A DNA stretch of 64,000 nucleotides from Planctomycetota bacterium (GTDB lineage: Bacteria; Planctomycetota; SZUA-567; H5-PLA8). The notes beneath the pieces were generated by a model that searched no databases, was not told where the DNA came from, and saw only the letters and a program-made list of their open reading frames with translations. The stretch's first letter is position 1. Each line of letters opens with the position of its first letter. The position numbers were made by a program, and so were the translations under genes. The stretch lies in contig JBBRPR010000012.1 in NCBI GenBank assembly GCA_038227875.1, positions 125,619-189,618 on the forward strand, given 5' to 3'. This document shows positions 20,385 to 37,833 of the stretch, piece after piece.

Positions 20385-20387
20385 AAA

Positions 20388-21952: not shown

Positions 21953-21996
21953 GTGTTCGAGTGGAGTTTTTAAGTGGAGCCGCGGGAGCGACATTC

Positions 21997-23493
21997 ATGG
22001 GCGTGACATTATCTTCGGCTGCGACAGGCCTCCAGACGTCCGCGCAGAAGCTCGGCGACCTTGCCGTTGCCGCGGGTGGTTATCTGGCTCGCGGACGAGC
22101 GGACATGACGGTGCGCGGTATTTTCACGGACACGCGTACGCCGCTCAAGGGCGGGCTGTTTGTCGCCCTGCGAGGGGACAATTTCGACGGCAATCACTTC
22201 GCCGCCGATGCAATCACAAAGCTCGGCGCGGCGGCGGTGCTCATCGACCGACCTGAAGCGCTGGACACGCTGCCGCCCAACGCCGCGGCGATTCTCGTCG
22301 AAGATTCGCGCGAAGGATACCTGGGCATCGCTGCGCACCATCGCCGTCAGCTCAACCAGGTGCTCTGGATCGGCGTGACCGGCTCCGTGGGCAAGAGCAC
22401 CACCAAGGAGATGCTCGGCTACATTCTCGAACACGCGTCGGGCTGGCGCGATCAGGCGGCGTGCTGGAGCGTGCACCGCGCCAAGGAAAGTTTCAACAAT
22501 GCCGTCGGCCTTTCGCACACAATTCTCGCTGCGAACCGGCAGCACCAGGCGTCGGTGCTCGAACTGGGCACCAATCATCCCGGTGAGATCAAGCAGCTTG
22601 CCGCCGTAGCGCGGCCGCAGATTGCCGTGATCACCTGCGCGGCCGAGTCGCATCTTGAAGCGTTCGGCAGCATCGCCAATGTCGCGCGCGAGAAGGCGGC
22701 GATCCTCGCGTTTCAGACCGAGCGCGAAATCGCAGTACTGAACGCCGACGATCCGCATTTCGAACTCTTTCGCCAGGCCGCTCGCGGCCGCGTGGTTACG
22801 TTCGGCACTTACGCACATGCCGATTACTGCGTGCGACAGTTGACGCTGACGCAGGGCATGGCGCGATTCCTGATCCGCCACGGCGACAACATTGCCGAAT
22901 GTGCGCTGCGCGTTCCGGGCGTGCATCAGGCCATGAACGCCGCCGCCGCGATTGCGGCCGCCTGCAGCGCGGGGCGTGACCTGCAGGACTGCGCTGCCGC
23001 GGTGAGTCACTTCGACGGCGTCGCGCGCCGTTTTGCCGTGCGCACGGTTCGCGGCGTGACGGTGATCGACGACGCGTACAACGCCAATCCGGCCAGCTTC
23101 CGCTCTGCGCTGGCGACGTTGAAGTCAATGTCGGCGCTGCGCAAATTCGTGGTGGCTGGCGACATGCTGGAACTCGGTGACGCCACACACACTCTCCACC
23201 AGATGCTCGGCTCGCAGCTGGCGGAATGCGGCCTCCATCGTCTCATCACGGTCGGCGCGCTGGCGGGAGAAGCCGGTGAAGCGGCGATCGCATCCGGAAT
23301 GAAACCATCGCAGTGGCTGGAGTGCAAGACGCCCGAGCAGGCCGCGCAGCAGCTTACGCCGCTGCTGGAGCATGGCGATGTCGTACTGGTGAAGGGTTCG
23401 CACGGCATCCATCTCGAACGCTGCATTGAACGGCTTTGCGGAGACTTCCGGCCCGCTGCCAACAGCTCGCGACTGGAAGTGCGCACGGCTTAA
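21997..23493 (+). CDS. murF: UDP-MurNAc-tripeptide:D-Ala-D-Ala ligase MurF
   Basis: TDTR, GDNFDG, GVTGSVGKSTTKEM, SFNN, ELGTNHPGEI, DDAYNANP, GDMLELG, VKGS; start uncertain (21961 or 21997). Confidence 0.95.
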   Translation: MGVTLSSAATGLQTSAQKLGDLAVAAGGYLARGRADMTVRGIFTDTRTPLKGGLFVALRGDNFDGNHFAADAITKLGAAAVLIDRPEALDTLPPNAAAILVEDSREGYLGIAAHHRRQLNQVLWIGVTGSVGKSTTKEMLGYILEHASGWRDQAACWSVHRAKESFNNAVGLSHTILAANRQHQASVLELGTNHPGEIKQLAAVARPQIAVITCAAESHLEAFGSIANVAREKAAILAFQTEREIAVLNADDPHFELFRQAARGRVVTFGTYAHADYCVRQLTLTQGMARFLIRHGDNIAECALRVPGVHQAMNAAAAIAAACSAGRDLQDCAAAVSHFDGVARRFAVRTVRGVTVIDDAYNANPASFRSALATLKSMSALRKFVVAGDMLELGDATHTLHQMLGSQLAECGLHRLITVGALAGEAGEAAIASGMKPSQWLECKTPEQAAQQLTPLLEHGDVVLVKGSHGIHLERCIERLCGDFRPAANSSRLEVRTA

Positions 23494-24398
23494 CGGTCTT
23501 TGATCGCGAGTCCTTCGAGTTTCTTGAGATCGTCCGAGCGCCTGTAGTGGAACGCCCAGAGGAAGATCTGGTTGCGTTCGGGGAAGTGTTGCACGCCGAT
23601 CTTGTAGCGGAAGCAGACGCGGAAAATCTGGTCGGCGTGGCCCAGCGCCCAGATTGCGCGGCGTTGGTAGGCGACTCCGCCGTCCTCGCTTGGAATGAAT
23701 TTCGGGCCGCGCAGACCCGCGATTCCGTTCAGGAATTCCGCGGCGAAGACATTCAGCGGCCGGCCGCTCAGCGCCATATCCGCCAGTGAAATCAAAAAGA
23801 CATACAGTCGGCGGCTGCGCCACTCAAAGACCATCTGCTTGCGTCCCGAGAGGAAAATCGTTTCGGCGAGCTTAAAATCGCTGCTCAGCCGGAACGCAAA
23901 ATCGAACGTTTCCCAGGGAACAATGGGGCTGTCGTGGATTTTCAGCGAATCGGCAATGCTACGCAGCAGCTCCGTCTCCTTCGTGCCGCTGGTGTTGTGG
24001 ATTTCTTCTTTGTAGAAGTAGATCAGGAACGAGAAGAAGCGTCGTTGTTCGGTGGCCAGGCACGACGCGGCGAGCAGGTGGTTGCCGTCGGCCATCACGT
24101 ACAGCGTGGCGAACCAGCCCTTGGGCAGTTCCGACAATTCCTTGCTGCTGAGCGCCTGCTTTTTGAATGCGCGCCCGGCCTTGGCGTAACGCTGTTGGAT
24201 GCGCAGTGCGTTGAAGCGCGGCGGGAGGCGGGTCCATTCGGCGACCAGGCGCCGCACGGAGCCGTCGTCCATTTCAACATGCGAGCGGGTGGTGTTGGTT
24301 TCGTACGACGACATCTCCCACTCGTCGGGGACGCTGAACGAAATGCCGTCCCATGAAAAGGTGTGGAGTTTCGTTGCGGGAGTGGGCTTGCTTGGCAT
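23490..24398 (-). CDS. Hypothetical soluble protein, last gene of the ABC/RRE cluster
   Basis: 302-aa ORF with two apparently related halves (FSWDGISFSVPDEWE / WETFDFAFRLSSDFK); co-oriented with the cluster. Confidence 0.7.
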   Translation of the reverse strand: MPSKPTPATKLHTFSWDGISFSVPDEWEMSSYETNTTRSHVEMDDGSVRRLVAEWTRLPPRFNALRIQQRYAKAGRAFKKQALSSKELSELPKGWFATLYVMADGNHLLAASCLATEQRRFFSFLIYFYKEEIHNTSGTKETELLRSIADSLKIHDSPIVPWETFDFAFRLSSDFKLAETIFLSGRKQMVFEWRSRRLYVFLISLADMALSGRPLNVFAAEFLNGIAGLRGPKFIPSEDGGVAYQRRAIWALGHADQIFRVCFRYKIGVQHFPERNQIFLWAFHYRRSDDLKKLEGLAIKDR

Positions 24399-24409
24399 CG
24401 GAGCATTAG

Positions 24410-24440
24410 AAATTAAAAATTCAAAATTAAAAATTCAAAA
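24410..24440. repeat. Heptanucleotide tandem repeat
   Basis: AAATTAA-AAATTCA-AAATTAA-AAATTCA-AAA directly upstream of the start at 24398. Confidence 0.75.
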
Positions 24441-24475
24441 ACGCACGCGGGAGAATGTTGTTTTGGTTTAAAGTC

Positions 24476-24630
24476 GACTGTCGCGATTTCGGATTCCGCA
24501 GTCACCCTGTTGCAAATTTGCAACAGGGTTCCAGTAAATACCTTCTGGCCAATTGGCCAGAAGCACAACTAATGGTGGTGTTGTACCTGTAGAACACCTT
24601 GGGGACTGTAGTCCCTAAGGTCAGTTTGAC
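24476..24630. repeat. Chain of back-to-back, non-identical palindromes
   Basis: Perfect 26-bp (24504-24529) and 22-bp (24542-24563) palindromes; 1-mismatch palindromes at 24577-24598 and 24597-24620; weaker ones at 24476-24503, 24564-24577 and 24620-24630. Confidence 0.9.
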
Positions 24631-25371
24631 TCAGTGCGAGCCCACGCCTTCGATGCCGCCGATTTCGATGTTCACCTCGCCCTTCTTGGCGATGCGTTCG
24701 ATCTGGCCGTCTTTGATCCAGATCACGCGGTCGGAGGCGTTGAGCATTTTCAAGTCGTGCGTGGCGGTGATGATCGTGATGTTGCGGTCGTTCTTGAGGC
24801 CGTTGAGCAGCTTGATAATCTCTTCACCGGTCTTGAGGTCGAGATTTCCGGTCGGTTCGTCGGCGAGAATGATCGCGGGCTTGTTGACCAGCGCGCGAGC
24901 GATGGCGATGCGCTGCTGCTGGCCACCGGAGACTTGATGGGGGAGGTGGTCGAGGCGATGGCCGAGGCCGACCTGCTCGAGGACCTTCGCCGCGTCCTTG
25001 CGTGCGGTTTCCGGATCGATGCCGGCGAAGATGCGCGGAATGGCAACGTTTTCCAGCGCGGTCATTGTCGCGATCAGATTGAAGGACTGAAAAATGTAGC
25101 CGAGTTTGTGGCAGCGGACGAGCGCGAGTTGATTTTTGGAAATCGACGCGAGCTTGTAGCCTTCGACGGTGACGTTGCCGGACGTCGGCGTGTCCAAGCC
25201 GCCGATCATGTTAAAGAACGTCGACTTTCCCGAACCCGACGGGCCCATGATCGAGAGGTATTCGCCGCGAATGATGTCCAGCGTGATCCCGCGCAGGGCG
25301 TGCACTTCCTCGTGGCCCATGCGGTAGACCTTGGTGACGTTCTCGGCGCGGACGATGATGTTGTCGCTCAT
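24631..25371 (-). CDS. MacB/LolD-family ABC ATP-binding protein
   Basis: GPSGSGKST, GYIFQSFNL, VSGGQQQR, LADEPTGNLD, ATHD; ATGA coupling to the upstream permease fixes the start at 25371. Confidence 0.95.
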   Translation of the reverse strand: MSDNIIVRAENVTKVYRMGHEEVHALRGITLDIIRGEYLSIMGPSGSGKSTFFNMIGGLDTPTSGNVTVEGYKLASISKNQLALVRCHKLGYIFQSFNLIATMTALENVAIPRIFAGIDPETARKDAAKVLEQVGLGHRLDHLPHQVSGGQQQRIAIARALVNKPAIILADEPTGNLDLKTGEEIIKLLNGLKNDRNITIITATHDLKMLNASDRVIWIKDGQIERIAKKGEVNIEIGGIEGVGSH

Positions 25372-26051
25372 TCTTCCACCCTGAGCGCTTCGACGGGCTG
25401 CTTGGTGGCGGCCCAGTACGCCGGCGCGATTGAGGCAGCGACGGAAATCACCGTGCCGATGCCAAACGAAGCGGCAATGACGCCCATGATTTTCAGCCAT
25501 GGGCAGTAGGTCCAGGCAAAACCGTGGAAGCTGAACGTCGAAGCGGCGAACCCGAAAATCAGCCCGATGAGGATGCCGACGATAGTCGCCGCGACGCCCT
25601 GCAGCAGCGATTCGATGAAATATGTCTTCACGATGAACGAGTCAAGCGCGCCGACGCACTTCAGTGTGCCGATTTCCTTCACGCGTTCGGTCACGGACAT
25701 CAACATCGCGTTGACGATGCCGACCAGGCAGGTGATCAGCGATAAGGTGATGAGGATGAACATGCGGGTGTCGGTGCCGGCCATGCGCATCTTGTCGATT
25801 CCGGCATCCTGGAGCAGCGCATTGATCGCGTCGCGGTCGGTGGTGCTGACGTCGATCAGGGCGTGGACCATGACGTGGTTGACCAGCATGTAGCAGAGAA
25901 AGGCGATGGCCAGAATCACGCCGATCATGGCGACGAACGCGCGCATGCGGCGGCGCTTCAAGCTGCCCATGCTGACGGAAAAAACCACGGACCACGGCAC
26001 CGTGTAGCTTTCAGGCACATCCGTCGAAGTTGTCACGGCATTTTCAGCCAC
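25368..26051 (-). CDS. Small FtsX-like permease
   Basis: GIVNAMLMSVTERVKEIGTLKCVGA and PAYWAATKQPVEALRVE FtsX motifs; 4 TM with a very short periplasmic loop. Confidence 0.9.
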   Translation of the reverse strand: MAENAVTTSTDVPESYTVPWSVVFSVSMGSLKRRRMRAFVAMIGVILAIAFLCYMLVNHVMVHALIDVSTTDRDAINALLQDAGIDKMRMAGTDTRMFILITLSLITCLVGIVNAMLMSVTERVKEIGTLKCVGALDSFIVKTYFIESLLQGVAATIVGILIGLIFGFAASTFSFHGFAWTYCPWLKIMGVIAASFGIGTVISVAASIAPAYWAATKQPVEALRVEE

Positions 26052-26065
26052 ACCACACCCGTTTC

Positions 26066-29032
26066 TTACGCCGCGCGATCCAGATCGATACGCGAATTGG
26101 GCAGATTGAACCAGTACCCCAGCACAAGCACGAGGGTTACCACGATCAATTCGCCGACAATCAAACCAATGAAGAACGCGCGCACGCGCGTGTATGTATC
26201 ACGGCTGCCGTAGCGCGTCACCAGCGCCTTGGCCAGCCAGCCGAGGAAAATCGGGAACCAGTAGAAACGCATCAGCGGGTTGATCAGCATGATCATCCCG
26301 ATCGGATGCGGCAGCCAGAAGAGCGACTGGCGGAAGAAGAGCAGCGCCGCCATGGCCGTGGCGCCGGCGATCATCCACATGCCCAGCGAGAACGAGGCGG
26401 CCGGCGGATTCTGATTGACGCTCTTGAGCTGCGAATACAGATCCGGCGGCATGCCGGAGTAGAACCAGCCTTCCAGGCCGTTGGCGCCGTGCGCGTAGGC
26501 CATCATCAATGACGTGCCGATGGAGACGATCGCCGCCAGCGAAACGGCGACGACGATGGCCACGTGGTAGCGGCCGCGTTCGAGGCGCAGTTCATCGCGC
26601 ATTTTCAAACTGTTGGCGATCATTGGGGCGATGAACGATTTGATGTCGAGGAAAAAGACGGAGTAGTAAACCATGAGCGGGGTGAACATTGCCGGCGAAC
26701 TGTAGGACTGATCGAAGCCCAGGAACGTGCGGATAAAATGGAACGGACCGGCGAAGGCCTGGAAGCCCATGATGCCGCCCTCGGCGACCGCGCGGACCAG
26801 GCCGATGGTCAGCAGCAGAATTCCACCGAGGATCACCAGCGTGAAGCCGAGGTTCGCGCCCATGCCCTGCCACAGCATGAGAATCAGCCCGAGGGTGCAG
26901 CCGACGAAAAGACCCGAGGACCAGCGCAATTCGCGCTGTTCATCGAATTCCAATTCCTTCACGACGCTGGGTGCAAACGCGCAGAGGAGATATTTGCGAC
27001 ACGTGTACAGCGCGACGCTGGCGAACACGATCATCGCACCTTCACCCTGGGCGGTGGCGAAATTGAGCGTGTACCACCAATTGCTGGGGAACGAGTCCAT
27101 GTTCTCGCCGTAACCCAGTCCGCAAAGGATCAGCACCTGCAACAGGAAGAACAGGTAGAAGAACCAGAGCGAGAACGAGGTCTTCGCCGGCGTAAAGAAC
27201 GAGAGCCCGATCACGGTGAAGAAAATTTGCGACTGCGCGCGGGGGATCAGCGCTTTCAGGAACGTATCTTTGATGTACTCGGCCCAGCCACCGTCAAGAT
27301 TCAACGGCGCGATACCCTCAATCAGTCCGGCTTTGCTTAAAAAATTCCAACCCAGGATGCTGGCGGAAACGAAGAAGCCCAGCCAGAAGAGCCCGCTCTT
27401 AAACAGGTCGGGTACGCCACCCGGCTTCTCGTCGGAGTTTCCACCGATGATCATGGGCAGTTCGGCCAGTGGGTAGATCAGCTTTTCGTTGTGCGCCCAT
27501 TGGCGGAAGATCAGCACGTTGAACGTCATCAGGATCACGTAGGTCAGAATCGCCAGCAGTCCCCAGCGCCAGAGCACCGGCCACCACTGCGCCCATGGGG
27601 TGTCGCCGAAGAGGTAGCGCTTGGTCGAGACGTCGAACGACGGAAACTGCGCCACGATGGCACTCAACTGCGTGCGAGCCGCAGCGGCGGTCAGTTTGCC
27701 GGCAGTGATCTGCGTCGAAAATTGACGGAGATCGGCGACACAGGTCTTGATGCGGTTGGCGATTTCGAGTTGCTGATCCTTATTTGTCCGTTGCAGCGTG
27801 AGGCGGTCGCGCTCGGCCTGGGCGCTGGCCTTCTGCTTGTTCAGGTCCTTGATCTCGGCGGTCAGCTGCGCCATCTGTTCCATCGAAGCGCTCCGCTTGG
27901 CGGCGGTGCGTTTGGCCAGTTCCTGGTCGAGGCGTTCGATCTCCGCGCGGAGGTGTTCGACTTCGGCGATCAGATTTGACTGTGCAGCCGCGACGTCTTT
28001 GGCATCGCTGAGCGGTTCGAGCTTCGTGATCGCATTTTGCAGTGCACTGTCTTCGGACGATGCGACGAGGTCCTCGTCTTTGAGCGCTGCGAGTTTCGTG
28101 TTGAGTTCAGTCAGTCCGCTGAGCGCCGATGATCCGGTCGTCAGGCGATGCAGGCGGCCCCAGTAGCTTTGCGAATCGTCGCCGGGCACAGGGATGATGC
28201 CGGGATAGGCCTGCATCGTTTTTGGCAGGCCGCGCCGGAAGAGCTCAACCTTGGCGGCCGCTTTGTCGGTCAGTTGTTTCAGCGATTCCCTATGCGCCTC
28301 GACGAGCTTCTTCTGTTCGACAATTTGCGAGGGATACGTTTTGACGATCTCTTCGGGCGCGGGCGGGGGAGGGTTCTTGCTGGCGGCGTAGTTCTTCCAG
28401 AGCTTCTCCGCGTCGTCGGCGTAGCGTTGTGCGCGCGCGACGGCTGTTGCATGCGCGGGCTCCGGCAGGGCCTCTGCGGTTTTGACTTCGGCCTTGCGCG
28501 CCACGACGTCGTCGGCGAGTTTCTGGACCTTGCTCAGGTCTTCGTAGCGCACCAGGACTTCGCGGTACTCCTTCGCGGCGTCCTGGATGCCGGGCTCGGC
28601 CAGGAAATAATTTTCGCTGACGAACGGTTCGACGTAGCGGTTCCATTCGGCCTGCTCGGTGTTCCAATCCTTATAGAACATGCTGCCGACGATCGGCACC
28701 ATCTGCATCGTCAGTCCGTAGATCGAAATGCCCGACGAGACGGCGCCCATGATGAAGACGATCAGGATTTCGGGAATCGTAAACGGCTTGATGAAGCGAA
28801 TCAGCTTTAAGAAAGGATTGAGCAGCAGGACCATCGCCAGCAGCAGCGCGTAACACAATGGTGCGATCTGCGTCGACGCGATGTAGACCGGCGACGACGT
28901 GTTCATGCCGAGGATCGCGACGTAGGCGAAAAACGCGGAGAAGAACGCCCCCGCGAGCATCGCGCGGAAGGTGATCATGCGGGGTTTCTTCACGTTCGTT
29001 TCAGACACAATGGTTCCCAATTTCCCAAACAC
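26066..29032 (-). CDS. Polytopic membrane protein (DUF6785/DUF6784-like, OPT-related) with large helical insertion
   Basis: FRQWAHNEKLIYPLAELP and WLPHPIG..FFIGLIVGE motifs; many TM segments; about 320-aa charged helical insert. Confidence 0.7.
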   Translation of the reverse strand: MFGKLGTIVSETNVKKPRMITFRAMLAGAFFSAFFAYVAILGMNTSSPVYIASTQIAPLCYALLLAMVLLLNPFLKLIRFIKPFTIPEILIVFIMGAVSSGISIYGLTMQMVPIVGSMFYKDWNTEQAEWNRYVEPFVSENYFLAEPGIQDAAKEYREVLVRYEDLSKVQKLADDVVARKAEVKTAEALPEPAHATAVARAQRYADDAEKLWKNYAASKNPPPPAPEEIVKTYPSQIVEQKKLVEAHRESLKQLTDKAAAKVELFRRGLPKTMQAYPGIIPVPGDDSQSYWGRLHRLTTGSSALSGLTELNTKLAALKDEDLVASSEDSALQNAITKLEPLSDAKDVAAAQSNLIAEVEHLRAEIERLDQELAKRTAAKRSASMEQMAQLTAEIKDLNKQKASAQAERDRLTLQRTNKDQQLEIANRIKTCVADLRQFSTQITAGKLTAAAARTQLSAIVAQFPSFDVSTKRYLFGDTPWAQWWPVLWRWGLLAILTYVILMTFNVLIFRQWAHNEKLIYPLAELPMIIGGNSDEKPGGVPDLFKSGLFWLGFFVSASILGWNFLSKAGLIEGIAPLNLDGGWAEYIKDTFLKALIPRAQSQIFFTVIGLSFFTPAKTSFSLWFFYLFFLLQVLILCGLGYGENMDSFPSNWWYTLNFATAQGEGAMIVFASVALYTCRKYLLCAFAPSVVKELEFDEQRELRWSSGLFVGCTLGLILMLWQGMGANLGFTLVILGGILLLTIGLVRAVAEGGIMGFQAFAGPFHFIRTFLGFDQSYSSPAMFTPLMVYYSVFFLDIKSFIAPMIANSLKMRDELRLERGRYHVAIVVAVSLAAIVSIGTSLMMAYAHGANGLEGWFYSGMPPDLYSQLKSVNQNPPAASFSLGMWMIAGATAMAALLFFRQSLFWLPHPIGMIMLINPLMRFYWFPIFLGWLAKALVTRYGSRDTYTRVRAFFIGLIVGELIVVTLVLVLGYWFNLPNSRIDLDRAA

Positions 29033-29048
29033 TCTCTTTTTAGAAACG

Positions 29049-31046
29049 TCAGTACACCAGCGGCGACATCATCTTGATCAGGATCGTAATTGCCACGGAG
29101 ATCATCGCGATCAACCCCGTCCCGCACGCGAATCCCGCAGCCAGCACTGGAGCGTAGCGGTACCACATTTCGCCGAACTTCTTGTGAAAGTAATAGCGCC
29201 CCAGGAACGCGCCGGTCAGTTCCAGAAGCGCGGAGCAGGGCATGTTCTGCCCCAGGCCGCGGACAACGCCGAAGACCAGGAGCGTCGGCATGCCGAAGAA
29301 GGAGAGAACGAAGAACGAGCCCAATCCCGTGCCCAGTCCCCAGAGAAAATTCGGCCACTTCCACGCTTCGAGGAACGGCGAGGTTCCGCCGGTGGTTGCG
29401 CTGAAGGTCAGCGCAGTCTGCTTGGCTTTCAAGTCCCACATCTGCTGTGCGTAGGGATAGGCACCGGACGGGATGTCGGCCATCTGCCAGAGCAATTGCG
29501 AGAAGATCAACGATGAGATGACGACAATCGGCAGCACGACGATCGTGGCCTTGATCACGCTTTTAAGTTTGGTGCCGGTGAGTTCCATGACGCGGAACGA
29601 GACGGTGGCTTCGCCGTAATTGGGAATCGGCGCCGGCGCGAACCAGATCTTTACTCCTTGATAGCCGCTGAGAATAAACGTCGCTTCTTTAATCAGCGGG
29701 ATGCTGACCGCCTGGCCGGCGAGGCCTTCGAGCTTCGCTGTCGCGTAGGAAATCAGCGGCGTGTAGACCGTCGCGTAGAACGCGAAGAATTGCCACGGGA
29801 AACCTTCGATCAGGTAGCATGAGAGGACAATCCAGAATGTGCTGGTGAAAACGTAGATGCCCAGCGCGGCGTAGATCGAAAAGTCGCCGCGCCGCGGGTC
29901 GTTGGTGACCAACCGTTGCCAGGCGCTGGGCTCCGACGCATCGACGCTCTTGTCTTTGGCCACGCCGGCCCTGGCGAGCCTCCGCAGCGCGATCATTGGC
30001 GCGATGATTTGAATCATGCTGATGATGACGATGGCGATGGTCTGCCCCACGCCGAACGACAGGTAGAAGTCGACGGTGTTGCTGTAGAGCGTATCGGTCA
30101 CCCGCATCTGCGGATTCCAAGTGGTGAGAATGCCCCACTTATAGAGCAGCGGATTGAGGATGAACGTGGAGAGCACCCCGATCGCGCTGCCGATCACCGC
30201 CCAGAACGGCAGCACCATACCCCAGATGATCGAGCCGATATCGAAGGAAAAGTTGACCGGCGTCGCGGGAAGCACGGAGGATGTTTGCGGCGTGAAGTCG
30301 ACCCAGGGAATGGGCAGCAGTTCGATCTTCTTGCTGAGAATCTGTGAGGTAATCGCCGGGATTCCGATATAGATCGAGGCGAAAATGATTCCCACCACGC
30401 CGCCGATCGAGAAGCAGCGCCAGCGCCACGGTTCCTTCGAGCCCTTCGGATCCGTCAGTGCCGTGATGCCCGACGCGCTGACCGGCGCCATGGGAAACGG
30501 CAGCTTTTCGACGTCGTTGGTGATGCGGTAAAGAACGTAGCCCAGTCCATATTGATCGAGCTTGCCGATCACCAGCCCCAGCGAACAGAGCATAATCGGC
30601 GTGAACCAGCCAGCGGTGAAGAAGGTGCGCCCGCTCGCACGGATCGTCGCCGCCGAGGGCGCGAACCAGGTGGGAATATCCTGCGCCATGCCCATGGAGC
30701 GCATCGCGTCGGACTGGACGAGGTACTGATTCCAGAGCAGGCCTTCAAAGGGGGAACTCAGCGCCATGCCGGACATGAAGAAGAGGATGTAGACTTCCTG
30801 CACTTTCAATTCTTTGAGCGAGCGGCGGGCAATTTCGGCGAAGAGAATGACCGTGACCCACTTTGCCGCGTCGCTGACGCCGCCGGATCCACCGACGAAG
30901 AGATTCAGGTACATCGACGCCGGGAGCATGAAGAAGCCCACGAACGCCGCGCCGGCCGCCGCACGCCAGTTGAAACCATCCTCGAAGTGCTCGGGCGGTT
31001 TCATCAGATCGCGGTAGCGATTGAGTTCTGCGTCCTGTTTGAACAT
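29049..31046 (-). CDS. OPT/YSL-superfamily-like membrane transporter
   Basis: FEDGFNWRAAAGA at the N-terminus; DVEKLPFPMAPVSASG matches the EKLxF/YP-type OPT motif; about 14-16 TM segments. Confidence 0.65.
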   Translation of the reverse strand: MFKQDAELNRYRDLMKPPEHFEDGFNWRAAAGAAFVGFFMLPASMYLNLFVGGSGGVSDAAKWVTVILFAEIARRSLKELKVQEVYILFFMSGMALSSPFEGLLWNQYLVQSDAMRSMGMAQDIPTWFAPSAATIRASGRTFFTAGWFTPIMLCSLGLVIGKLDQYGLGYVLYRITNDVEKLPFPMAPVSASGITALTDPKGSKEPWRWRCFSIGGVVGIIFASIYIGIPAITSQILSKKIELLPIPWVDFTPQTSSVLPATPVNFSFDIGSIIWGMVLPFWAVIGSAIGVLSTFILNPLLYKWGILTTWNPQMRVTDTLYSNTVDFYLSFGVGQTIAIVIISMIQIIAPMIALRRLARAGVAKDKSVDASEPSAWQRLVTNDPRRGDFSIYAALGIYVFTSTFWIVLSCYLIEGFPWQFFAFYATVYTPLISYATAKLEGLAGQAVSIPLIKEATFILSGYQGVKIWFAPAPIPNYGEATVSFRVMELTGTKLKSVIKATIVVLPIVVISSLIFSQLLWQMADIPSGAYPYAQQMWDLKAKQTALTFSATTGGTSPFLEAWKWPNFLWGLGTGLGSFFVLSFFGMPTLLVFGVVRGLGQNMPCSALLELTGAFLGRYYFHKKFGEMWYRYAPVLAAGFACGTGLIAMISVAITILIKMMSPLVY

Positions 31047-31099
31047 CAGCGGTTCGTTTTCACTCCGTCGACTTCAACACATCATGAACGTCAACAACG

Positions 31100-34000
31100 T
31101 CAGGCCACGGGCCCGGCACTCACGACTTTCATCGATTCTTCCGCCGCCAGCGCGTAGGCGGACTGCTCCTGCTTGCTCAGGCTGCGCCAATGCATCAGGT
31201 ACGTGCGCAGTTTTTCGAGGAACGGTTTGTTGGTCGTGACCCAGTTGGTGTCCTGACCCGAAACTCGAACCGTCGTGAGCATGATGCCATAGGATTGTAC
31301 GCGCTCATCGTACGCAGCGGTGAAGGTCACCCGTTGCGTTACGCCAAGATCAAAAGGAGCGAGTGCCAGGTCGTACGAGAGCGAGTACGTGTCGCGGCCC
31401 TTGTCGTCCTTGCCTTTGTTGCGCGAGGGATGCGACGCGATCAGATCGCCCATCGACGCTTCGGTAAAGCGCGCGAAGTATTCTTCCAGGTAGCCGACGA
31501 CACCGCTGACGACTTCCGGGTGATAGATGAAGGGGAACGTGGTCTTCATGGTGTGGCCATCGTGTTCGGGGAACGACCATTTGCGTTTTCCTGACGGCAC
31601 TGCCGCACGGGTCGCCACGATGGCGGGATAGAGCGTCGAAACCAGAACCATCGAAATGGTGAAGAGGATCACGTAGATGACCTTCAGCGACGCGAAGTTG
31701 AGGTCGATGCCGGTGATGCCCAGATGAATCAGCAGGATGCTTAAGAACTGCCCGATCAGATACCCGCCCACCGAACCGACAATGCCATACACAAATGCTT
31801 CGGAAAGAAAGAACATGCCGATGTGATTGGGATTGAGTCCGATCGCGTTGTAGATCGCGATCTCCCGTTTGCGTTCGAAGACGGAGCCGAGCATGGTGTT
31901 GAGAATGATCGTGCCGGAGATCAGCAGCGGAATGATCAGCGAGGCGAGATTGCCGACGGCGGTTTTGAATCCCGAGCCGATGTAGTATACGCCGGAGCTC
32001 ATCGTCTGGGCGTCGTTGCCTTTTGTGGTTTGGTCTTCCGAGCCGCTGGCTTTAAACGGAGCCTGGCTGGCGATATAGAAATTCGCCTGCGTCTCTGTGA
32101 GCAGGTGGAGCACGTTCTTCCAGACGTCCTGGTTTTCGGCGTTGAAGCGGATTGAAATGCTGTACGGTGTCGCGCCCATGCGCTCGGCGCGTTCGACCGG
32201 CAGGATCAACATGGTCGACGTGTCGTTGTACAACCCGGTCTGATCCTTAGCCGCGCCGGCTTCGCCGCCAGCACCGGGGACAGCCGCCGGATCCGCAGCG
32301 CCTTCCTTCTGCGGCACGAGCAGGTATCCATCGATGTCCTTCATGCGACGGAAAGATTCGTCGTCGACGATGCCGGCGACCGTGAAATCGACGTCGCGGA
32401 AATGAATTTTTGCCGTGGCGATGTTCTCTTTGGTGATGCCGAGCACTTCGGCGATGCTGTTGGGGATGAGCACTTCGTCGGCGCGGTCGGACGTGAAGTA
32501 ATGTCCCGCCAGCAGCGGCATGCGGCCGAGGAATCCGTCTTCGAGCATGGACAGACCGAGCACCGATTCGATGCGCACCGTTTTGCCGCTCGGCGCTTCG
32601 GCAACAAAGGGCTGAACCATGCGGTCGTACTGCGCCTGTAGCATCCAGCGCCGGACATTGATGTCGCCCTTGCCGTAGAACATTTCGCGGAAGGCGGTGA
32701 GCGATGCTTCGTCCATGCGCTTGCCGGGCCAATGGTACATCAACCCGGTGTACGGCGGAATATCTTTAGAGACCGAAACGGTGGTGGGGCTCATCGTCTG
32801 CGAAATGCTGGTGAACGAAAGCATGGTGAACGTGATCAGGACAATCGTTGCCGTGGTCAGCGCCGTGCGCACACGGCGGCGGCGCATGTTGTTGACGCCG
32901 ATCAGCATCGCTTTCTGCCCGACGGTGCCGTAGCCGACGTCCGCGCCGTCGTGGCCGGCGAAATTCTGGAAGAGCAACGTCATCTCGCCTTCAAAACGGC
33001 CGTGCAGAATCTTGACGACAAAGGTGGCCAGGCCCCCCATTACAAAGGCGATAAGAATCCCTTCCGGTGCCTTGGCGATGGCGAACGCGGGATGGATTTC
33101 GCGGAAGAGCACGTATGCGAGCACGAACAGACCGAAGAACGCGCCGATCTGCGCTTCGATCTTGACCACGTTGAAGAGCAGTTTCTGCATGAAGAAACAG
33201 AAGGGTAGAATCAGCGCCATGTAGAAAATCACGCCGCGGAGCATGTCGTTTGTGGTGCCGGCCAGTTGCAGATAGGCCTGGCGTTCGGCGCCCATCGCCG
33301 TGTGCTGTGCCTGCAGGTAGGCGGTGTAATCGTTGGCCTTGCGCTTAGCGGCGGCTTCGTCCAGATGCGCTTTGCCCTGTTTCATGAAATCGCTGGCCAG
33401 CTCAATCGAGACGCCGTGCAGACGGCCCAGGCGGAAACGGTTGAGCGCATCGAGATCGCGGGCGGCCGCGGCGAAGTAATCGGGACCAAGTTGTTGCGGC
33501 GAATCGTAGCCGATGCCTTCGGGCTGTTCGGTCGTGGAATTCAGTGCAGGGACTTGCGTCAGAATCTTTACGCTGGCGGCGGTCGGATCGATATAGAGGG
33601 AGCCTGGAAAGGAGGACGTCGGGATCGCGGTGGTGTAACGTTTGCCGGAACCGCCGAGCACCAATCCGCTCGCCCCCATTTTCTGAGGCGGAGATTCGCG
33701 CTTGCCGTCGAGAGGCCTGAAGTCGGTCACGGCAATCGGAGAAACGGCGATCAGCGCCGGATTATCACGCGTCAGAATTGGAAACTCGCGGCACTGGAAC
33801 ATCACGAACGACTGACTGGTCAAATTCATCGCGAAGTTCGAGGTCAGCGTCGCTTCCTTTTCACCGCCGTCGACAGTTTGCAGCACCTCGCGGTAGTCCT
33901 TGTCCATTTGAAAGGCGTTGTTGAGTACGTGAACTACGTAGTGATTGATGCAATAGAAGGTGACGGTGGCTCGTTCGTCGGTCAATTGGCTGTAGGCCTG

Positions 34001-36076
34001 CACGACATCGCCAACAACGGCTTGCGCGACACTGACGTTGCGCAGTTGGACAAACGCATTGGATACGAGAACTTCAGGTAGCACCGCCGAAGAAAATTTA
34101 TCGAACTGCAGCGTCTTAATCTGCAACGGCCAGGCTGTGCGCCCGTTCGGATTGGGTTTGCCCAGTCCGGAAACATCCGTGGCGAGCATGCTGCGCAGCA
34201 ATTCCTGGACGTACGCCGACTGGCTTCCGACAATCTGCGCATCGAGGCGGCTAAACGTATCCTCAGGTGTGAAAATGCGGTCGCCAAAGGCGAAGACGTC
34301 GAGCAGCGCGAGCGCGGGCGTTTTCTGGCTGGTCTGGATGTACATGAGATCGCCGGGCGCCGCGAAGTAGTAACTCTCCGGCAGCCCGCCGTTGAACGTC
34401 ATGGTATCGACGAGCGGATTTTTGCGGCCGGCCTTCACCCCGGGGAGTTCCGCGGACATCTCCATCAGCTTTGCGCCGTAGCGGTTTCGCCAATCGGGGT
34501 TTCCCCAGGAACTTCCCGAAGAAAATCCCAGCGATTTTCCATTCCACGACATTTGCAGCGACAGCGCCCACGTGACGTTGCGCCCCTGCAGCGCCACGCG
34601 AATGGCGTTGTTCGCTTCAATCTGATCCAGATCGGCCTGGTTAAGTTTGGCCTTGTTCACCTCCCCGTTCAGGACTTCGTCGACGTTCTTGCTTAAGATT
34701 TCCACTTCGTCGGCGGTCAAGTCGCTGAACTTTTTCGTGCGGCCATACTTGTTGAAGAGCATTTCAATGCTGAGCAGGCGCTGGTAGTCGATTTTCGCCT
34801 GCTGCGATTTTTCCGCGTCGACTTCCCGGCTCTTGGCGAGATTGGCGGCCGGCTCGATCTTGTTCAGCAGTGCTCGTTTGACCGGCAGCTGCTTGCCCGT
34901 CGACGTGTCGATCTGTTCGCGCAGGGTCACCAGCAGATCTTCCACCGCCTGCTTTGCGGCAGCGTCGTTGGGCGCGTCCTTGGCTTTATTCACGAGCTCC
35001 GACAGGTTGCGGTAGTGCGACGCGTACATCTCCTCCAGGCGCATGTCCTGCAGGATCATGTCGCGGACGGTGTCGAGGTCCTTCATCGGCGCGCAGAGAT
35101 GCGTGGCGAGCATGCGTTCGCCGAGGTAGTTCTGGGTGTGCGCGTTGACGGCGACGAGAATCACCGAGCGCGCCGGCGGCATGGCCTTGTAGGCTTTCAG
35201 CAGCTGCGTCAGCAGAAACAGATTCGCGCCGGCCTGCGCGCCCGCAGCGCGTTCCGGGATGATCGCGTTGGAATCCAGCGGCGCGTAAATCACGCAGACG
35301 TCGTTTTTCAGCGTCGCGTCGGCACCGGGGACGAGCACCCAGGGATCGCGGAGGTACGTGTTCTTCCAGATCGACGGCTCGCAGTTGAAATCGGCGTCAA
35401 TAGTGCCCGTCTTCAATGCTGCGATGAGTTTCTTGCCGTCGTCTTCAGAGACCGCGAAGCGCGGCACGGCCGTTTCGGTGTCGTACACTTTGGAGTAGGC
35501 GTCGACGCCTTCAATGTGCCCCGATGGCAAAAAGATAAAACCTTTGACGCCAAAACGCAGCAACCGGACCCAATTGATGCCACAGTTAAAGTCCAGCACG
35601 ACGACCGAGCCGCTGAGCTCCGTGCCCTTGATCGCGGCGAGGTCTTCGAGCTGGCCACGGCCGAGGTAAATCAGCGGCGCTTTGAAAGCCGTTTCCTTGA
35701 AGTTGCCCGGCCGCATCAGCGACGGATGCAGTGGCTGCAAGGCGTAGGTCGTCCCGCCGACAGCCACGGAGCTCTTGCCGGGGACGAACACGGGCGTCTG
35801 GAAACGGATCGCGCCGTGATCGAAACCGCTGGCCGCGAACAACTGCGCGACTTTTTCTTCCGTTTTCGTATTTCCGTCGCTGCCCGGAAAACGGACCTCC
35901 GCGCCCTTGAAGAATTCCTGGAGCTCTGTGAAATACTGTGCGCTGGCTTCCGGAGTCGCCCAAGGCCCCGTCGACGGGCTCACGCCGGGATCTTCGGCCC
36001 GTGCGTCCCCGTGTCCCGCCAACAGGCCGACGAGCGTCAGGGCAGCGATCAATGTAAGTGAGCGGCTAAAGGTCAT
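31100..36076 (-). CDS. Giant FtsX-family permease with N-terminal M28-peptidase/PA-like ectodomain
   Basis: ATG 36076 (ATGA overlap) plus signal peptide; PA-like APLIYLGRG; M28-like APLDS; NMRRRRVRTALT and LNTMLGSVFERKREIAIYNAIG FtsX motifs. Confidence 0.8.
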   Translation of the reverse strand: MTFSRSLTLIAALTLVGLLAGHGDARAEDPGVSPSTGPWATPEASAQYFTELQEFFKGAEVRFPGSDGNTKTEEKVAQLFAASGFDHGAIRFQTPVFVPGKSSVAVGGTTYALQPLHPSLMRPGNFKETAFKAPLIYLGRGQLEDLAAIKGTELSGSVVVLDFNCGINWVRLLRFGVKGFIFLPSGHIEGVDAYSKVYDTETAVPRFAVSEDDGKKLIAALKTGTIDADFNCEPSIWKNTYLRDPWVLVPGADATLKNDVCVIYAPLDSNAIIPERAAGAQAGANLFLLTQLLKAYKAMPPARSVILVAVNAHTQNYLGERMLATHLCAPMKDLDTVRDMILQDMRLEEMYASHYRNLSELVNKAKDAPNDAAAKQAVEDLLVTLREQIDTSTGKQLPVKRALLNKIEPAANLAKSREVDAEKSQQAKIDYQRLLSIEMLFNKYGRTKKFSDLTADEVEILSKNVDEVLNGEVNKAKLNQADLDQIEANNAIRVALQGRNVTWALSLQMSWNGKSLGFSSGSSWGNPDWRNRYGAKLMEMSAELPGVKAGRKNPLVDTMTFNGGLPESYYFAAPGDLMYIQTSQKTPALALLDVFAFGDRIFTPEDTFSRLDAQIVGSQSAYVQELLRSMLATDVSGLGKPNPNGRTAWPLQIKTLQFDKFSSAVLPEVLVSNAFVQLRNVSVAQAVVGDVVQAYSQLTDERATVTFYCINHYVVHVLNNAFQMDKDYREVLQTVDGGEKEATLTSNFAMNLTSQSFVMFQCREFPILTRDNPALIAVSPIAVTDFRPLDGKRESPPQKMGASGLVLGGSGKRYTTAIPTSSFPGSLYIDPTAASVKILTQVPALNSTTEQPEGIGYDSPQQLGPDYFAAAARDLDALNRFRLGRLHGVSIELASDFMKQGKAHLDEAAAKRKANDYTAYLQAQHTAMGAERQAYLQLAGTTNDMLRGVIFYMALILPFCFFMQKLLFNVVKIEAQIGAFFGLFVLAYVLFREIHPAFAIAKAPEGILIAFVMGGLATFVVKILHGRFEGEMTLLFQNFAGHDGADVGYGTVGQKAMLIGVNNMRRRRVRTALTTATIVLITFTMLSFTSISQTMSPTTVSVSKDIPPYTGLMYHWPGKRMDEASLTAFREMFYGKGDINVRRWMLQAQYDRMVQPFVAEAPSGKTVRIESVLGLSMLEDGFLGRMPLLAGHYFTSDRADEVLIPNSIAEVLGITKENIATAKIHFRDVDFTVAGIVDDESFRRMKDIDGYLLVPQKEGAADPAAVPGAGGEAGAAKDQTGLYNDTSTMLILPVERAERMGATPYSISIRFNAENQDVWKNVLHLLTETQANFYIASQAPFKASGSEDQTTKGNDAQTMSSGVYYIGSGFKTAVGNLASLIIPLLISGTIILNTMLGSVFERKREIAIYNAIGLNPNHIGMFFLSEAFVYGIVGSVGGYLIGQFLSILLIHLGITGIDLNFASLKVIYVILFTISMVLVSTLYPAIVATRAAVPSGKRKWSFPEHDGHTMKTTFPFIYHPEVVSGVVGYLEEYFARFTEASMGDLIASHPSRNKGKDDKGRDTYSLSYDLALAPFDLGVTQRVTFTAAYDERVQSYGIMLTTVRVSGQDTNWVTTNKPFLEKLRTYLMHWRSLSKQEQSAYALAAEESMKVVSAGPVA

Positions 36077-36432
36077 CGGATGGCGATGGAGATGATGCAC
36101 CGTTGAAGGAGGGTCTTCAGAAACGACACAATGCACATCTCCGCTTCCCTCGGGTGAACTTTGAAACGGGCCACGAATTCATCTTTCAATTGCAGTGCGG
36201 TCTTCTTGCCGTCGATCTGCGTCAGCACGAACGCGCCGAGCGCATCGAGCTCAAAGCGGCGATCGAATTCCTTGGGACGCAGCATTCCCAGCAATCCGGG
36301 CGCGCGTTTCACGCGCACTGAAACGACGAGGACGCCGCCGGACTTCTCCTTCCAGGAGACTTCCGGATTCACCACCGGCACTCCCATCAGCGAGTGCTTG
36401 CGATCAATGCGTTCCAGTGTTGCCTTCGCCAT
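36073..36432 (-). CDS. PqqD-family / RiPP recognition element (RRE)-like protein
   Basis: FELDALGAFVLTQIDGKKTALQLKDEFVARF....AEMCIVSFLKTLLQRCII is the PqqD winged-helix pattern; GGAAAAGG upstream. Confidence 0.85.
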   Translation of the reverse strand: MAKATLERIDRKHSLMGVPVVNPEVSWKEKSGGVLVVSVRVKRAPGLLGMLRPKEFDRRFELDALGAFVLTQIDGKKTALQLKDEFVARFKVHPREAEMCIVSFLKTLLQRCIISIAIR

Positions 36433-36470
36433 TTCCCTTTTCCAAGCCGGACGTCACAGCAGTCCTTCTG

Positions 36471-37211
36471 TTAAACAACTTCGTTTCCAATCCGTCCAAT
36501 TTTGATGTTCAAATTCTTTCGTTCTTCCAGCCGGTCGACCTTGCCATCGCGGATCCAGAGGATGCGGTCGGAGACGTCGAGCATTTTCATGTCGTGGGTC
36601 GCGGAGATGATCGTGATTCCTTCAGTCTGCTTTAATTCGAGCAGCAGCTTGATCATTTCCTCGCCGGTCTTCACGTCCAGATTCGCGGTCGGTTCGTCGG
36701 CCAGGATGATCACCGGATCGTTGGCGATGGCGCGGGCGACGGCGACGCGCTGCTGCTGTCCGCCGGACATTTCGTACGGCCGGTGAAAGATGCGTTCACC
36801 CAGTCCGACGCGGGTGAGAATCTTCGCCGCCTTTTCGCGCGCGTCGTCGGCAGCGGTGCCGGCGAAAATCATCGGCAACATTACATTTTCCAAGGCCGTG
36901 AGCACCGGCAAAATATTGTACGATTGAAAGATGTAGCCGATCTTGTGGCAGCGCATCCACGCCAACTCGTACGAATCGAGCTGTGCCACGTCGATTTCAT
37001 CGATGAACACCATTCCCGATGTCGGCGAATCGATGCCGCCGATCATGTTGAACAACGTCGACTTCCCCGAGCCCGACGGCCCCATGATCGAGAGATACTC
37101 GCCGCGGTACACGTCGAGAGAAACGCCGTCGAGCGCCTTGATGACTTCGTCACCTTGCGCATAGACGCGTTTCACGTCGAGAGCTCGAATGACGATGTCC
37201 CGTGTGTCCAT
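36471..37211 (-). CDS. MacB/LolD-family ABC ATP-binding protein
   Basis: GPSGSGKST, GYIFQSYNI, MSGGQQQR, LADEPTANLD, ATHD; close paralog of 24631-25371. Confidence 0.95.
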   Translation of the reverse strand: MDTRDIVIRALDVKRVYAQGDEVIKALDGVSLDVYRGEYLSIMGPSGSGKSTLFNMIGGIDSPTSGMVFIDEIDVAQLDSYELAWMRCHKIGYIFQSYNILPVLTALENVMLPMIFAGTAADDAREKAAKILTRVGLGERIFHRPYEMSGGQQQRVAVARAIANDPVIILADEPTANLDVKTGEEMIKLLLELKQTEGITIISATHDMKMLDVSDRILWIRDGKVDRLEERKNLNIKIGRIGNEVV

Positions 37212-37440: not shown

Positions 37441-37833
37441 CTATTCCACCGCCGGTTCGCCAGAGAGCGCGTTTGCGGGTACGGGAACGGGCCGGGACTG
37501 CGTCATCCGCCGGGCTTCGATGGCCTTTCGTCCGTAGCTGGAATCCAGATACAAATTGTAGGCGGAGACGATGAACGGGAAGAGATTCTGAATAACGCCG
37601 ACCATGTCCTGCTTGGTGCTGAAGACGAAATACGCCAGCGTTGTGATGCTGCCCACGAGGCTCATGACCCAGAACAGGCGCGGAGTAATCGGCTTTCCGG
37701 CTTTGCGGGAGTAATAGGCCTGCACGAACCAGCGCGACGCAAAGAACAGCGCGCCGATCATGCCGATAATTTTCCACGGAGTTACAACGACAGGCGAGCC
37801 GAAGAGCAGTCCTTCGTAGATATGCGAATTCAT
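37441..37833 (-). CDS. Lipid-A-disaccharide synthase N-terminal (LAB_N)-like membrane protein
   Basis: WKIIGMIGALFFASRWFVQAYYS....PRLFWVMSLVGS...LAYF....D.VG; follows a GT2 gene. Confidence 0.85.
   Translation of the reverse strand: MNSHIYEGLLFGSPVVVTPWKIIGMIGALFFASRWFVQAYYSRKAGKPITPRLFWVMSLVGSITTLAYFVFSTKQDMVGVIQNLFPFIVSAYNLYLDSSYGRKAIEARRMTQSRPVPVPANALSGEPAVE

Follow-up and report, generated by a model that had tools for sequence, protein, structure and literature searches.

What do eight consecutive genes encode that place two ATP-binding cassette (ABC) ATPases, two FtsX-type permeases, two proteins resembling oligopeptide transporters (OPTs), a PqqD-like protein and a protein of no known family side by side on a single strand? 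This question is raised by a locus of Planctomycetota bacterium (assembly GCA_038227875.1, contig JBBRPR010000012.1, positions 125,619 to 189,618), which was analyzed as one window of 64,000 nt. All coordinates given here are those of the window. The cluster under study occupies positions 23490-37211 of the minus strand, where eight co-oriented open reading frames (ORFs) were found head to tail over the interval indicated by the original prediction, which had been made on this stretch beforehand. They are transcribed in the order A1-B-C-D-E-F-G-H. Our analysis indicates that these genes very probably constitute one conserved unit of this composition. C, F, A1 and G make up a predicted asymmetric type VII (MacB/Lol-like) ABC motor, to which the unit adds D, E, B and H. 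The reading that we consider the most likely, at a rough probability of 0.4, is that of a machine which captures oligomers in the periplasm and imports them with the help of ATP, peptides being the favored ligands; it is drawn from gene linkage and domain content.

The genes were closely spaced up to the last one, as had been described for this locus. A1 (36471-37211) is separated from B (36073-36432) by 38 nt, and, with the ATG at 36076 taken as the start of C, the genes of B and C share 4 bp (ATGA). C ends at 31100, 53 nt before D (29049-31046), which is followed after 16 nt by E (26066-29032) and, 14 nt further, by F (25368-26051). F again overlaps G (24631-25371) by 4 bp (ATGA). Judging from these ATGA overlaps, B and C on the one hand, and F and G on the other, are predicted to be translationally coupled. 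The longest gap, 232 nt, precedes H (23490-24398), which ends 4 bp inside the convergent murF gene. A weak terminator-like hairpin was located within this gap (24542-24563, minus strand); such hairpins were no commoner in the region than in shuffled sequence (20 sites versus 17 +/- 5 expected), and the scan of the region for promoters and terminators remained at chance level. The sequencing runs listed for the organism were DNA runs of sediment metagenomes, with none of RNA among them.

Whether such a set also exists elsewhere was addressed with relatives of D. Scanning of one genome per species yielded 577 stretches carrying a D relative, the best 80 of which were kept as loci and compared by tblastn with all eight window proteins; 39 of these loci spanned at least 18 kb and are referred to as long. 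C was matched in 72 of the 80 loci (38 of the 39 long ones), E in 70 (all 39 long ones), an ATPase in 58-59 (36 long), F in 51 (33 long) and B in 46 (33 long). The gene arrangement around D was conserved far more than expected by chance.

Three gene orders were encountered. The order of the window, A1-B-C-D-E-F-G-(H), in which D precedes E, was found in 29 of the 80 loci, labelled as Lentisphaeria, Kiritimatiellia, Verrucomicrobiota, Victivallales, Oligosphaera ethanolica DSM 24202 (L017), Planctomycetota and FCPU426; two ATPases were present in 12 of the 13 long loci of this type. The order F-A-C-E-D-(I)-H-B, in which E precedes D, was displayed by 41 loci labelled as Desulfobacterales, Desulfobacula, Desulfovibrio, Desulfocapsa and Syntrophobacterales. 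Exactly one ATPase was found in 24 of the 26 long loci of this second type and two in none of the 26. Their optional gene I, present in 15 Desulfobacterota loci (e.g. L037:12029-12637), encodes an extra exported protein of about 205 residues with a signal peptide; it belonged to no Pfam family and was undetected in D-then-E loci. The third order, E'-H'-B'-F'-ATPase-C'-D'-ATPase, came from a second, divergent full set in the same 9.3-Mb genome as the window (contig C6, ~99390-113700; L083, L084), whose proteins shared 44 % (D'), 27 % (C') and 24 % (E') identity with their window counterparts. The ORF of F' in this second set reads 787 residues, its start being uncertain.

Co-occurrence was further evaluated in 301 genomes of the same phylum, among which relatives are not independent of one another. 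DUF6785, the Pfam family to which E belongs, scored above its cut-off in 46 genomes, and the D family was likewise detected in 46 (E-value of at most 1e-30). The ectodomain of C was found in 47, with best E-values of at most 1.7e-23, a threshold set after a gap in E-values had been seen: the next genomes displayed values of 2.4e-16 or weaker and matched over a generic M28 stretch only. All three markers were present together in 45 genomes, two of them in two genomes (G006 without DUF6785, G100 without D) and none in the remaining 254.

Co-occurrence in other genomes had been named beforehand as the test on which the idea of an eight-gene unit would stand or fall, and the genes do co-occur: related loci, three gene orders and the 301-genome sample all bear the unit out. 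It is because the components recur together in other genomes and in other gene orders that we regard their co-existence as a real unit. An ABC efflux pump lying by chance beside independent OPT importers is one alternative. The physical contact between the two halves is indeed a matter of deduction, and one locus (L090) lacked nearby ATPases and a nearby mini-FtsX. This alternative is nevertheless extremely improbable in view of a linkage kept through three gene orders and at least two phyla, of co-occurrence in 45 of 47 genomes and of the 4-bp overlaps B-C and F-G.

The distribution of D was broad, its family comprising 936 representative clusters (50 % identity; E-value of at most 1e-3) among 1.84 billion proteins. 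Named relatives included proteins of Candidatus Poribacteria (39 % identity) and Candidatus Bathyarchaeia (30 % identity). On a 3.5-kb contig (L097, 76-3228), the C-terminal 450 residues of a C-like protein (E-values 1e-36 to 2e-52) were encoded directly 5' of a D-like gene on the same strand, and this D-like protein was identical to the protein labelled Candidatus Bathyarchaeia; the same C-then-D order was found on contig L098 (6-4410). Archaeal and other taxon labels are titles of metagenome-assembled genome records, so that binning error is possible. Should the archaeal assignment be correct, C and D would function as a core in cells that lack an outer membrane.

What the individual components are was examined next. 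Pfam assigned ABC_tran to A1 and G, PqqD to B, FtsX to C and F, and DUF6785 with DUF6784 to E, while D and H remained without any match.

The two ATPases, both of 246 residues, were the most readily identified components. A1, whose gene adjoins that of the giant permease C, and G, whose gene adjoins that of the mini-FtsX F, matched ABC_tran with E-values of 8.8e-34 and 1.1e-33, respectively, and kept Walker A, Q-loop, signature, Walker B and H-loop intact. They shared 59 % identity over 237 residues and found their best NCBIfam matches in LolD, MacB, YbbA, DevA and FtsE, in agreement with the initial description of two paralogous MacB-type ATPases. All equivalog cut-offs were missed: LolD scored 224.2 (A1) and 243.9 bits versus a cut-off of 307.75, and FtsE 191.6 and 208.7 bits versus 264.85. 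A1 orthologues from D-then-E loci displayed 54-86 % identity (median 83 %). In a FastTree phylogeny, A1 orthologues grouped with the single ATPases of Desulfobacterota and with the ATPase adjoining C' in one clade (support 0.98), and G orthologues fell outside it. This topology fits an ancestral C-proximal ATPase to which a second lineage, paired with the mini-FtsX, would have been added. A C-terminal tail of about 20 residues beyond the end of the LolD model was present in 36 of 36 aligned ATPases of the system (A1, G, the single Desulfobacterota form and paralogues). It follows approximately the pattern (D/E)-hydrophobic-x-hydrophobic-x-hydrophobic-G-x-I and is encoded at 36471-36536 in A1 and at 24631-24696 in G. 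The tail resembles a beta-strand and could possibly dock on the PqqD-like protein B.

The two FtsX permeases proved to be of very different size, as had been noticed from the start. F is a minimal permease of 227 residues, matching PF02687 at residues 99-219 (E-value 4.1e-16, above the 25.5-bit cut-off); hydropathy indicated four transmembrane (TM) helices with only about 40 residues between TM1 and TM2. C is a giant of 1658 residues if translated from the ATG (31100-36076), or of 1678 in its longest ORF from the GTG at 36136 (31100-36136), from which its residues are numbered here. Its hydropathy profile displayed a signal or anchor segment (23-41), an ectodomain of about 920 residues (42-960), three TM helices (965-1041), a cytoplasmic linker, FtsX TM1 (1093-1111), a periplasmic domain of 280 residues, TM2-4 (1394-1507) and a cytoplasmic domain (1508-1678). 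The FtsX module, i.e. the four TM helices and the 280-residue periplasmic domain between TM1 and TM2, is encoded at 31616-32860. PF02687 covered residues 1400-1510 only (3.9e-14, again above 25.5 bits), and Pfam gave no match of C to PF12704 (MacB_PCD) despite the 280 residues separating TM1 from TM2. NCBIfam scores of cluster proteins against Lol and FtsX models stayed far below their cut-offs (LolC 27.8 versus 473; lolCE 20.5 and 35.7 versus 362; FtsX_Gneg 18.2 and 23.6 versus 255). The cytoplasmic C-terminal domain of C, about 170 residues (31103-31615), displayed 15 invariant columns among 26 aligned sequences, and no family was found for it in Pfam (E-value of at most 10), in a profile search of the PDB or in the Atlas.

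The ectodomain of C is what most clearly sets this permease apart. Its AlphaFold 2 model was confident (predicted local distance difference test, pLDDT, 88.3; predicted TM-score, pTM, 0.89), and Foldseek retrieved 2ek8 (2.6e-17) together with BSAP, PaAP, transferrin receptor 1 (TfR1) and GCPII. VIA-align superposed it on the Aeromonas aminopeptidase 1rtq_A (Z 23.0; root-mean-square deviation 3.0 A; 253 of 291 residues), on TfR1 (Z 22.8) and on 2ek8 (Z 22.6); this fold comparison covers the model up to about residue 613, the beta-rich domains and terminal helices beyond being barely covered. A profile of 26 ectodomain sequences independently found aminopeptidases made of an M28 core and a protease-associated (PA) domain (2ek8, 1.8e-15; YwaD 6hc6, 1.5e-10) as well as inactive relatives (nicalin, 2.2e-5; nicastrin, 0.05). 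Model residues 20-611 make up the M28 core, which a long helical insert breaks in two; M28 fold, PA domain and this insert of about 170 residues are together encoded at 34172-35947. Sub-pieces of the window C gave no meaningful Pfam match at E-values of at most 10, so that the M28 kinship needed the family profile and the fold search to come to light; paralogue C' is a direct Pfam M28 match (3.3e-12). On the strength of the model, the ectodomain is predicted to carry a complete M28+PA aminopeptidase fold.

Active M28 enzymes display HxD, DDxSG and EE at the positions where the window C reads APLDS, AQAGAN and AHT. The histidine of the first motif was absent in 25 of 26 family members, only C' of the same genome keeping HFD, and the Glu-Glu pair was absent in all 26. 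This check spans the His, Asp and Glu-Glu positions, the last two metal ligands lying outside the aligned stretch. The ectodomain is called a pseudo-peptidase here because these residues are missing from an M28+PA fold, and it is predicted from its motifs to be catalytically dead. A giant permease with a pseudo-peptidase, as first proposed, is therefore retained.

Proteins D and E are both permeases and were harder to place. D (665 residues) matched PF03169 (OPT) not even at an E-value of 10, its family profiles gave no useful match among PDB sequences, and plain BLASTP between D and E was not significant (best E-value 1.4). The AlphaFold 2 model of D is of low confidence (pLDDT 55.6, pTM 0.54). 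Searched with Foldseek, it nevertheless singled out barley Yellow-Stripe 1 (YS1; 7wst_A, E-value 4.7e-8, TM-scores 0.58/0.62; 7wsr_A, 3e-7; range 0.56-0.62), the third-ranked PDB match reaching only 0.017 with a TM-score of 0.10. PF03169 was matched by 24 of 60 aligned D relatives (best E-value 5e-18). D is thus modelled as an OPT/Yellow-Stripe fold. E (988 residues) belongs to PF20581 (DUF6785, 5.3e-66) and PF20580 (DUF6784, 1.6e-21). Alignment of the two family profiles with hhalign gave a probability of 94.2 % and an E-value of 1.1e-7 over 465 columns, by which E is a remote homologue of D. The motif EKLx(F/Y)P pointed out early on as common to both proteins was recovered (EKLPFP at 180-185 in D, EKLIYP at 516-521 in E), and its two copies align profile-to-profile. 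Because of the YS1 fold match, of PF03169 in relatives and of the D/E profile alignment, both can be held to be distant members of the OPT superfamily, and the earlier label of two OPT-like proteins was upheld. Fused forms of D longer than 1165 residues were sought and none was found, which is weak evidence.

E further displayed an insert of about 370 residues after its third TM helix (residues ~108-480, between TM helices 3 and 4; 27593-28711), which splits the DUF6785 match into profile positions 1-123 and 138-498. The insert gave only weak coiled-coil matches (NCBIfam, and Pfam at E-values of at most 10) and is probably periplasmic according to the positive-inside rule. The E proteins of D-then-E loci carry it; the orthologues of Desulfobacterota (656-690 residues) do not. 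No membrane fusion protein is encoded in the cluster, and to this extent the original prediction stood; the coiled-coil insert of E could play a comparable reach-out role.

The two remaining proteins are read as soluble. B (119 residues) is a PqqD-like protein, i.e. a winged helix of the RiPP recognition element (RRE) type, RiPPs being ribosomally synthesized and post-translationally modified peptides. It matched PF05402 above the gathering cut-off (2e-6; 28.5 versus 23.4 bits), and its family profile found the lasso-peptide PqqD chaperone 9x90_B (1.4e-6), TbiB1 5v1u (1.3e-4) and PqqD 3g2b (2.8e-3), so that its initial annotation could be maintained. Hydropathy flagged a sole segment of B (100-118, score 1.76), situated at the extreme C-terminus inside the PqqD-matched helix. 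H (302 residues) displayed no TM helix and is read as cytoplasmic. No match was obtained for it with Pfam at E-values of at most 10 or by profile against the PDB, and its nearest Atlas clusters were unnamed families of Lentisphaerota and Thermodesulfobacteriota. The description of H as an orphan did not hold: homologues were found by tblastn in 23 of the 80 loci (13 of the 39 long ones; 24 of 39 by BLASTP clustering), in loci of the Planctomycetes-Verrucomicrobia-Chlamydiae (PVC) type as well as of Desulfobacterota, and as a copy H' in the second system of the same genome. From this distribution, H is a conserved component of the system. The B gene adjoins the H gene in two of the three gene orders; complex prediction of H with B, both given as alignments, reached a median score of 0.30 against a mark of 0.32 and counts neither way.

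The presence of B calls to mind a RiPP-like maturation or secretion system, in which B would hand a leader peptide over to the membrane components, to be exported. It is mainly from RiPP pathways that PqqD/RRE domains are known, and MacB-type systems export some peptides; in NCBIfam, bacteriocin and darobactin exporter ATPases were matched with 185-208 bits, below their cut-offs. The cluster itself encodes no precursor peptide, radical-SAM protein, YcaO, protease or other modifying enzyme, none is conserved near the 39 related loci, and the G-H gap harbored no small ORF recurring in other loci. With a conservation too wide and uniform to be typical of natural-product clusters, such a pathway is very improbable.

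How this system compares with known ones could then be considered. LolCDE likewise combines two different FtsX-type permeases of comparable asymmetry with MacB/LolD-type ATPases, and LolD was the best ATPase match. It differs in that the cluster proteins fell below every Lol equivalog cut-off, F is nearly devoid of a periplasmic domain, C carries the extra 920-residue ectodomain, three TM helices and a cytoplasmic tail domain, OPT-fold permeases are linked and a contig labelled as archaeal carries the core pair. MacAB-TolC and FtsEX-EnvC share with it the four-TM FtsX module and, as far as C is concerned, an extracytoplasmic stretch between TM1 and TM2, and ATP-driven mechanotransmission to an outer partner is expected; the outer partner of FtsEX is moreover an inactive hydrolase-like domain with coiled-coil elements. 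Unlike MacAB-TolC, the cluster has no MacA, no TolC and no MacB_PCD match in C. Unlike in FtsEX-EnvC, the inactive domain is fused in cis and is M28-like rather than LytM-like, and the FtsE and FtsX cut-offs were missed. Because the defining scores or partners of Lol, MacAB and FtsEX are lacking, the system is filed on sequence grounds as a type VII ABC variant outside these three.

The other modules also depart from their closest counterparts. D and E resemble the OPT/YSL transporters (TC 2.A.67; barley YS1 7wst) in the fold of D, in the PF03169 matches of D relatives and in the remote kinship of E, yet the window D lacks this match and E is filed as DUF6785/DUF6784. Characterized OPT proteins are importers; the known ones function by themselves as proton symporters, and none is known to be encoded together with an ABC motor. 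The ectodomain of C shares with TfR1, nicastrin and nicalin the M28 core with a PA (apical) domain, the loss of catalytic residues and the membrane-anchored state that goes with their binding or gatekeeper role; it differs by being bacterial, fused to an FtsX permease and enlarged by the helical insert and beta-rich domains. B, as seen above, resembles the chaperones of the lasso B1, TbiB1 and PqqD type, but has neither RiPP enzyme nor precursor near it and stands mostly beside H.

How might these parts work together? C and F would form a LolC/LolE-like heterodimer, which A1 and G would drive here as a pair; in Desulfobacterota, the single ATPase would do so as a homodimer. The dead peptidase domain would serve as a built-in receptor replacing a substrate-binding protein, a role proposed because the inactive M28-like TfR, nicastrin and nicalin are binding or gatekeeper domains and because no separate binding protein is encoded. 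The ligand of this receptor would be an oligomer from the periplasm or from outside the cell, the end of a peptide being the most probable. ATP-driven mechanotransmission via the FtsX module would then move or release the ligand into the OPT-fold permeases D and E, through which it would cross the cytoplasmic membrane. The periplasmic coiled coil that E has in the PVC-type version might be a lever gripped by the motor. On the cytoplasmic side, B and H would receive the incoming peptide or else dock on the conserved ATPase tails. Peptides are favored because three independent hints, the OPT fold, the aminopeptidase-derived receptor and the PqqD-type peptide-binding protein, suggest them.

Extended beyond this locus, the scheme would describe a hybrid transporter class in which a type VII ABC mechanotransducer with a dead-peptidase receptor loads OPT-fold secondary permeases. 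ATP would drive capture and hand-over and the OPT channel would provide the membrane path, with the PqqD-like protein receiving the peptide or docking on the ATPase tails. In PVC bacteria, Desulfobacterota, Poribacteria and some archaea, such a class would take the place of classical ABC importers that rely on a binding protein. We put it forward tentatively and consider it doubtful in this general form.

Several points weigh against capture and import. Contact between the ABC and OPT parts, the direction of transport and the substrate are themselves inferences, and the model of D on which part of them depends is the low-confidence one mentioned above. No characterized type VII ABC system is known to act as an importer across the cytoplasmic membrane; those known act outward or on periplasmic substrates. 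Locus L090 has the order E-C-D, and neither an ATPase nor a mini-FtsX gene lies within 20 kb of it, so that ABC coupling may not be obligatory. The PVC-type copy also looks more like a housekeeping envelope function than like a nutrient system, because it is highly conserved (D is 54-62 % identical across D-then-E loci) and has unrelated housekeeping neighbors: the flanks of 11 D-then-E loci displayed no common theme (aminotransferase, ProRS, ribosomal protein S4, type II secretion ATPase, Wzm/Wzt, melibiase and others). Finally, sugar-related neighbors of paralogous copies would favor glycans over peptides.

This last point was followed in the genomes concerned. The second set is surrounded by an AraC regulator, a GFO/IDH/MocA oxidoreductase, a 1264-residue protein with CBM9 and acetyl-xylan esterase domains and a BNR/sortilin protein. 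Many DUF6785 paralogues of related Planctomycetota are solitary, ABC genes being missing from their vicinity; some form tandem triplets, and several have AraC, xylose-isomerase-like, RhaA, GH38/57-like, melibiase or sulfatase genes as neighbors. Three tandem DUF6785/DUF6784 genes beside AraC and a xylose-isomerase-like TIM-barrel gene, with no ABC or giant gene, were observed in L086 (G066:C1, 7560-14137) and in L089 (G154:C2). The stand-alone relatives fit an autonomous permease fold. Glycan uptake was nevertheless dropped as the principal interpretation, sugar-related genes having a high base rate in these genomes and the contexts being mixed; because such genes are so common there, the hint is kept as a lead only.

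The immediate surroundings of the window copy bear on a machine working in the opposite direction. The operon is inserted between the end of the division and cell wall (dcw) cluster, with its murE-murF genes, and an upstream pair encoding a LAB_N protein and a GT2 glycosyltransferase. The dcw part (17132-23493, plus strand) comprises genes for MraW, a small ORF, a penicillin-binding protein transpeptidase, a MurE-like and a MurF-like protein, and converges on H. The small LAB_N membrane protein and the GT2 protein are encoded at 37441-38615 (minus strand) by genes that overlap each other just upstream of the operon. In 12 Desulfobacterota loci, a GT28-type glycosyltransferase gene was found 5' of the cluster.

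With such neighbors, the motor might instead serve export or extraction. It would pull an envelope component (a lipid-linked glycan, lipoprotein, exopolymer or peptide) from the outer leaflet, as LolCDE, MacB and HrtBA do, with the OPT-fold proteins as flippase or exporter and the dead peptidase as acceptor or chaperone. The outward or periplasmic action of characterized type VII systems speaks for it, as do the single, highly conserved PVC-type copy among housekeeping genes, the mur and glycosyltransferase surroundings just described and the periplasmic coiled coil of E, which recalls the reach of membrane fusion proteins. It is opposed by the importing activity of characterized OPTs and by the conserved neighborhood, in which neither a membrane fusion protein nor an outer-membrane channel recurred among the 39 long loci. 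The C-then-D pair on the archaeon-labelled contig L097 also argues against a role at the outer membrane if the label is right, an archaeon having none. Two copies in this genome and the many DUF6785 paralogues of related genomes furthermore suggest substrate diversification. On balance, export appears unlikely.

Another kind of neighbor was seen in Desulfobacterota. A partner-switching set follows the cluster convergently, on the other strand, in 12-15 of the 26 long loci; its members are a STAS protein, an RsbW-like kinase, a cNMP-binding protein, an 861-residue fused ABC exporter and a MASE10-HAMP-SpoIIE phosphatase (L035:14609-18189, L037:13927-14259, L037:17843-19312). Its position invites a regulatory scheme, with an ABC module that transports nothing itself. 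Through ATP hydrolysis the pseudo-peptidase would be switched, so as to gate the OPT permeases or to report on them, B and H relaying the signal in the cytoplasm. FtsEX and BceAB are precedents of type VII ABC systems that do not transport, a regulatory role is common among pseudo-enzyme ectodomains, and DUF6785 permeases occur elsewhere without ABC partners. However, the conserved genes of the cluster include neither a kinase nor a transcription factor, and the partner-switching set, besides lying on the other strand, was absent from the scanned flanks of D-then-E loci. C co-occurs with D and E so consistently that it seems integral to the system, and not a regulator that could be dispensed with. 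This scheme is accordingly held to be improbable, even more so than export, and ATP-assisted capture and import remains our preferred reading.

Other genes of the window are recorded for completeness. Two adjacent ABC-2 family (ABC2_membrane_6) permease genes at 8851-10453 (minus strand) are unrelated to the FtsX system. On the other side lie a DUF2961 protein gene (41264-42607), a TldD/PmbA metallopeptidase pair (45150-47895), a GH127-like gene (52439-54346), a gene for a multihaem cytochrome fused to TPR and HEAT repeats (59833-62229) and, 25 kb from the cluster, a HlyD-type gene (62311-63906). Within 23490-37211 itself, no substrate-binding protein, TolC, membrane fusion protein or modifying enzyme is encoded; for the first, second and last of these, the initial observation needs no change.

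The original statement that no characterized system combines these parts also agreed with the literature search, which turned up none. No paper on DUF6785/DUF6784 or on a combination of FtsX with OPT and PqqD, of FtsX with M28, or of type VII ABC systems with oligopeptide transporters and M28 was retrieved, most subscription journals lying outside its coverage; for the OPT family together with FtsX, a general census of transporters was the sole result. OPT transporters are mentioned merely as annotations in passages of PMC10880615 and PMC11535203. New here are the predicted OPT fold of D, the kinship of E to D, the putatively dead M28+PA ectodomain of C and the recognition of H as a conserved component.

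The proposed reading, if true, would matter for these families. The current view is that type VII ABC systems act outward or in the periplasm and that OPTs are symporters working alone; an operon joining the two with a pseudo-enzyme receptor would represent a new coupling of ATP to transport. It would also provide a function for DUF6785 and DUF6784, for a large family of giant 'hypothetical' proteins and for two unannotated families. At least one host is in culture, Oligosphaera ethanolica DSM 24202, and another bears an isolate-style name, Desulfovibrio sp. 7SRBS1 (L051). The hosts, Lentisphaerota, Kiritimatiellia, Planctomycetota and Desulfobacterota, are abundant anaerobic degraders of sediments and guts, and for this reason the substrate of the system probably matters for carbon or nitrogen turnover.

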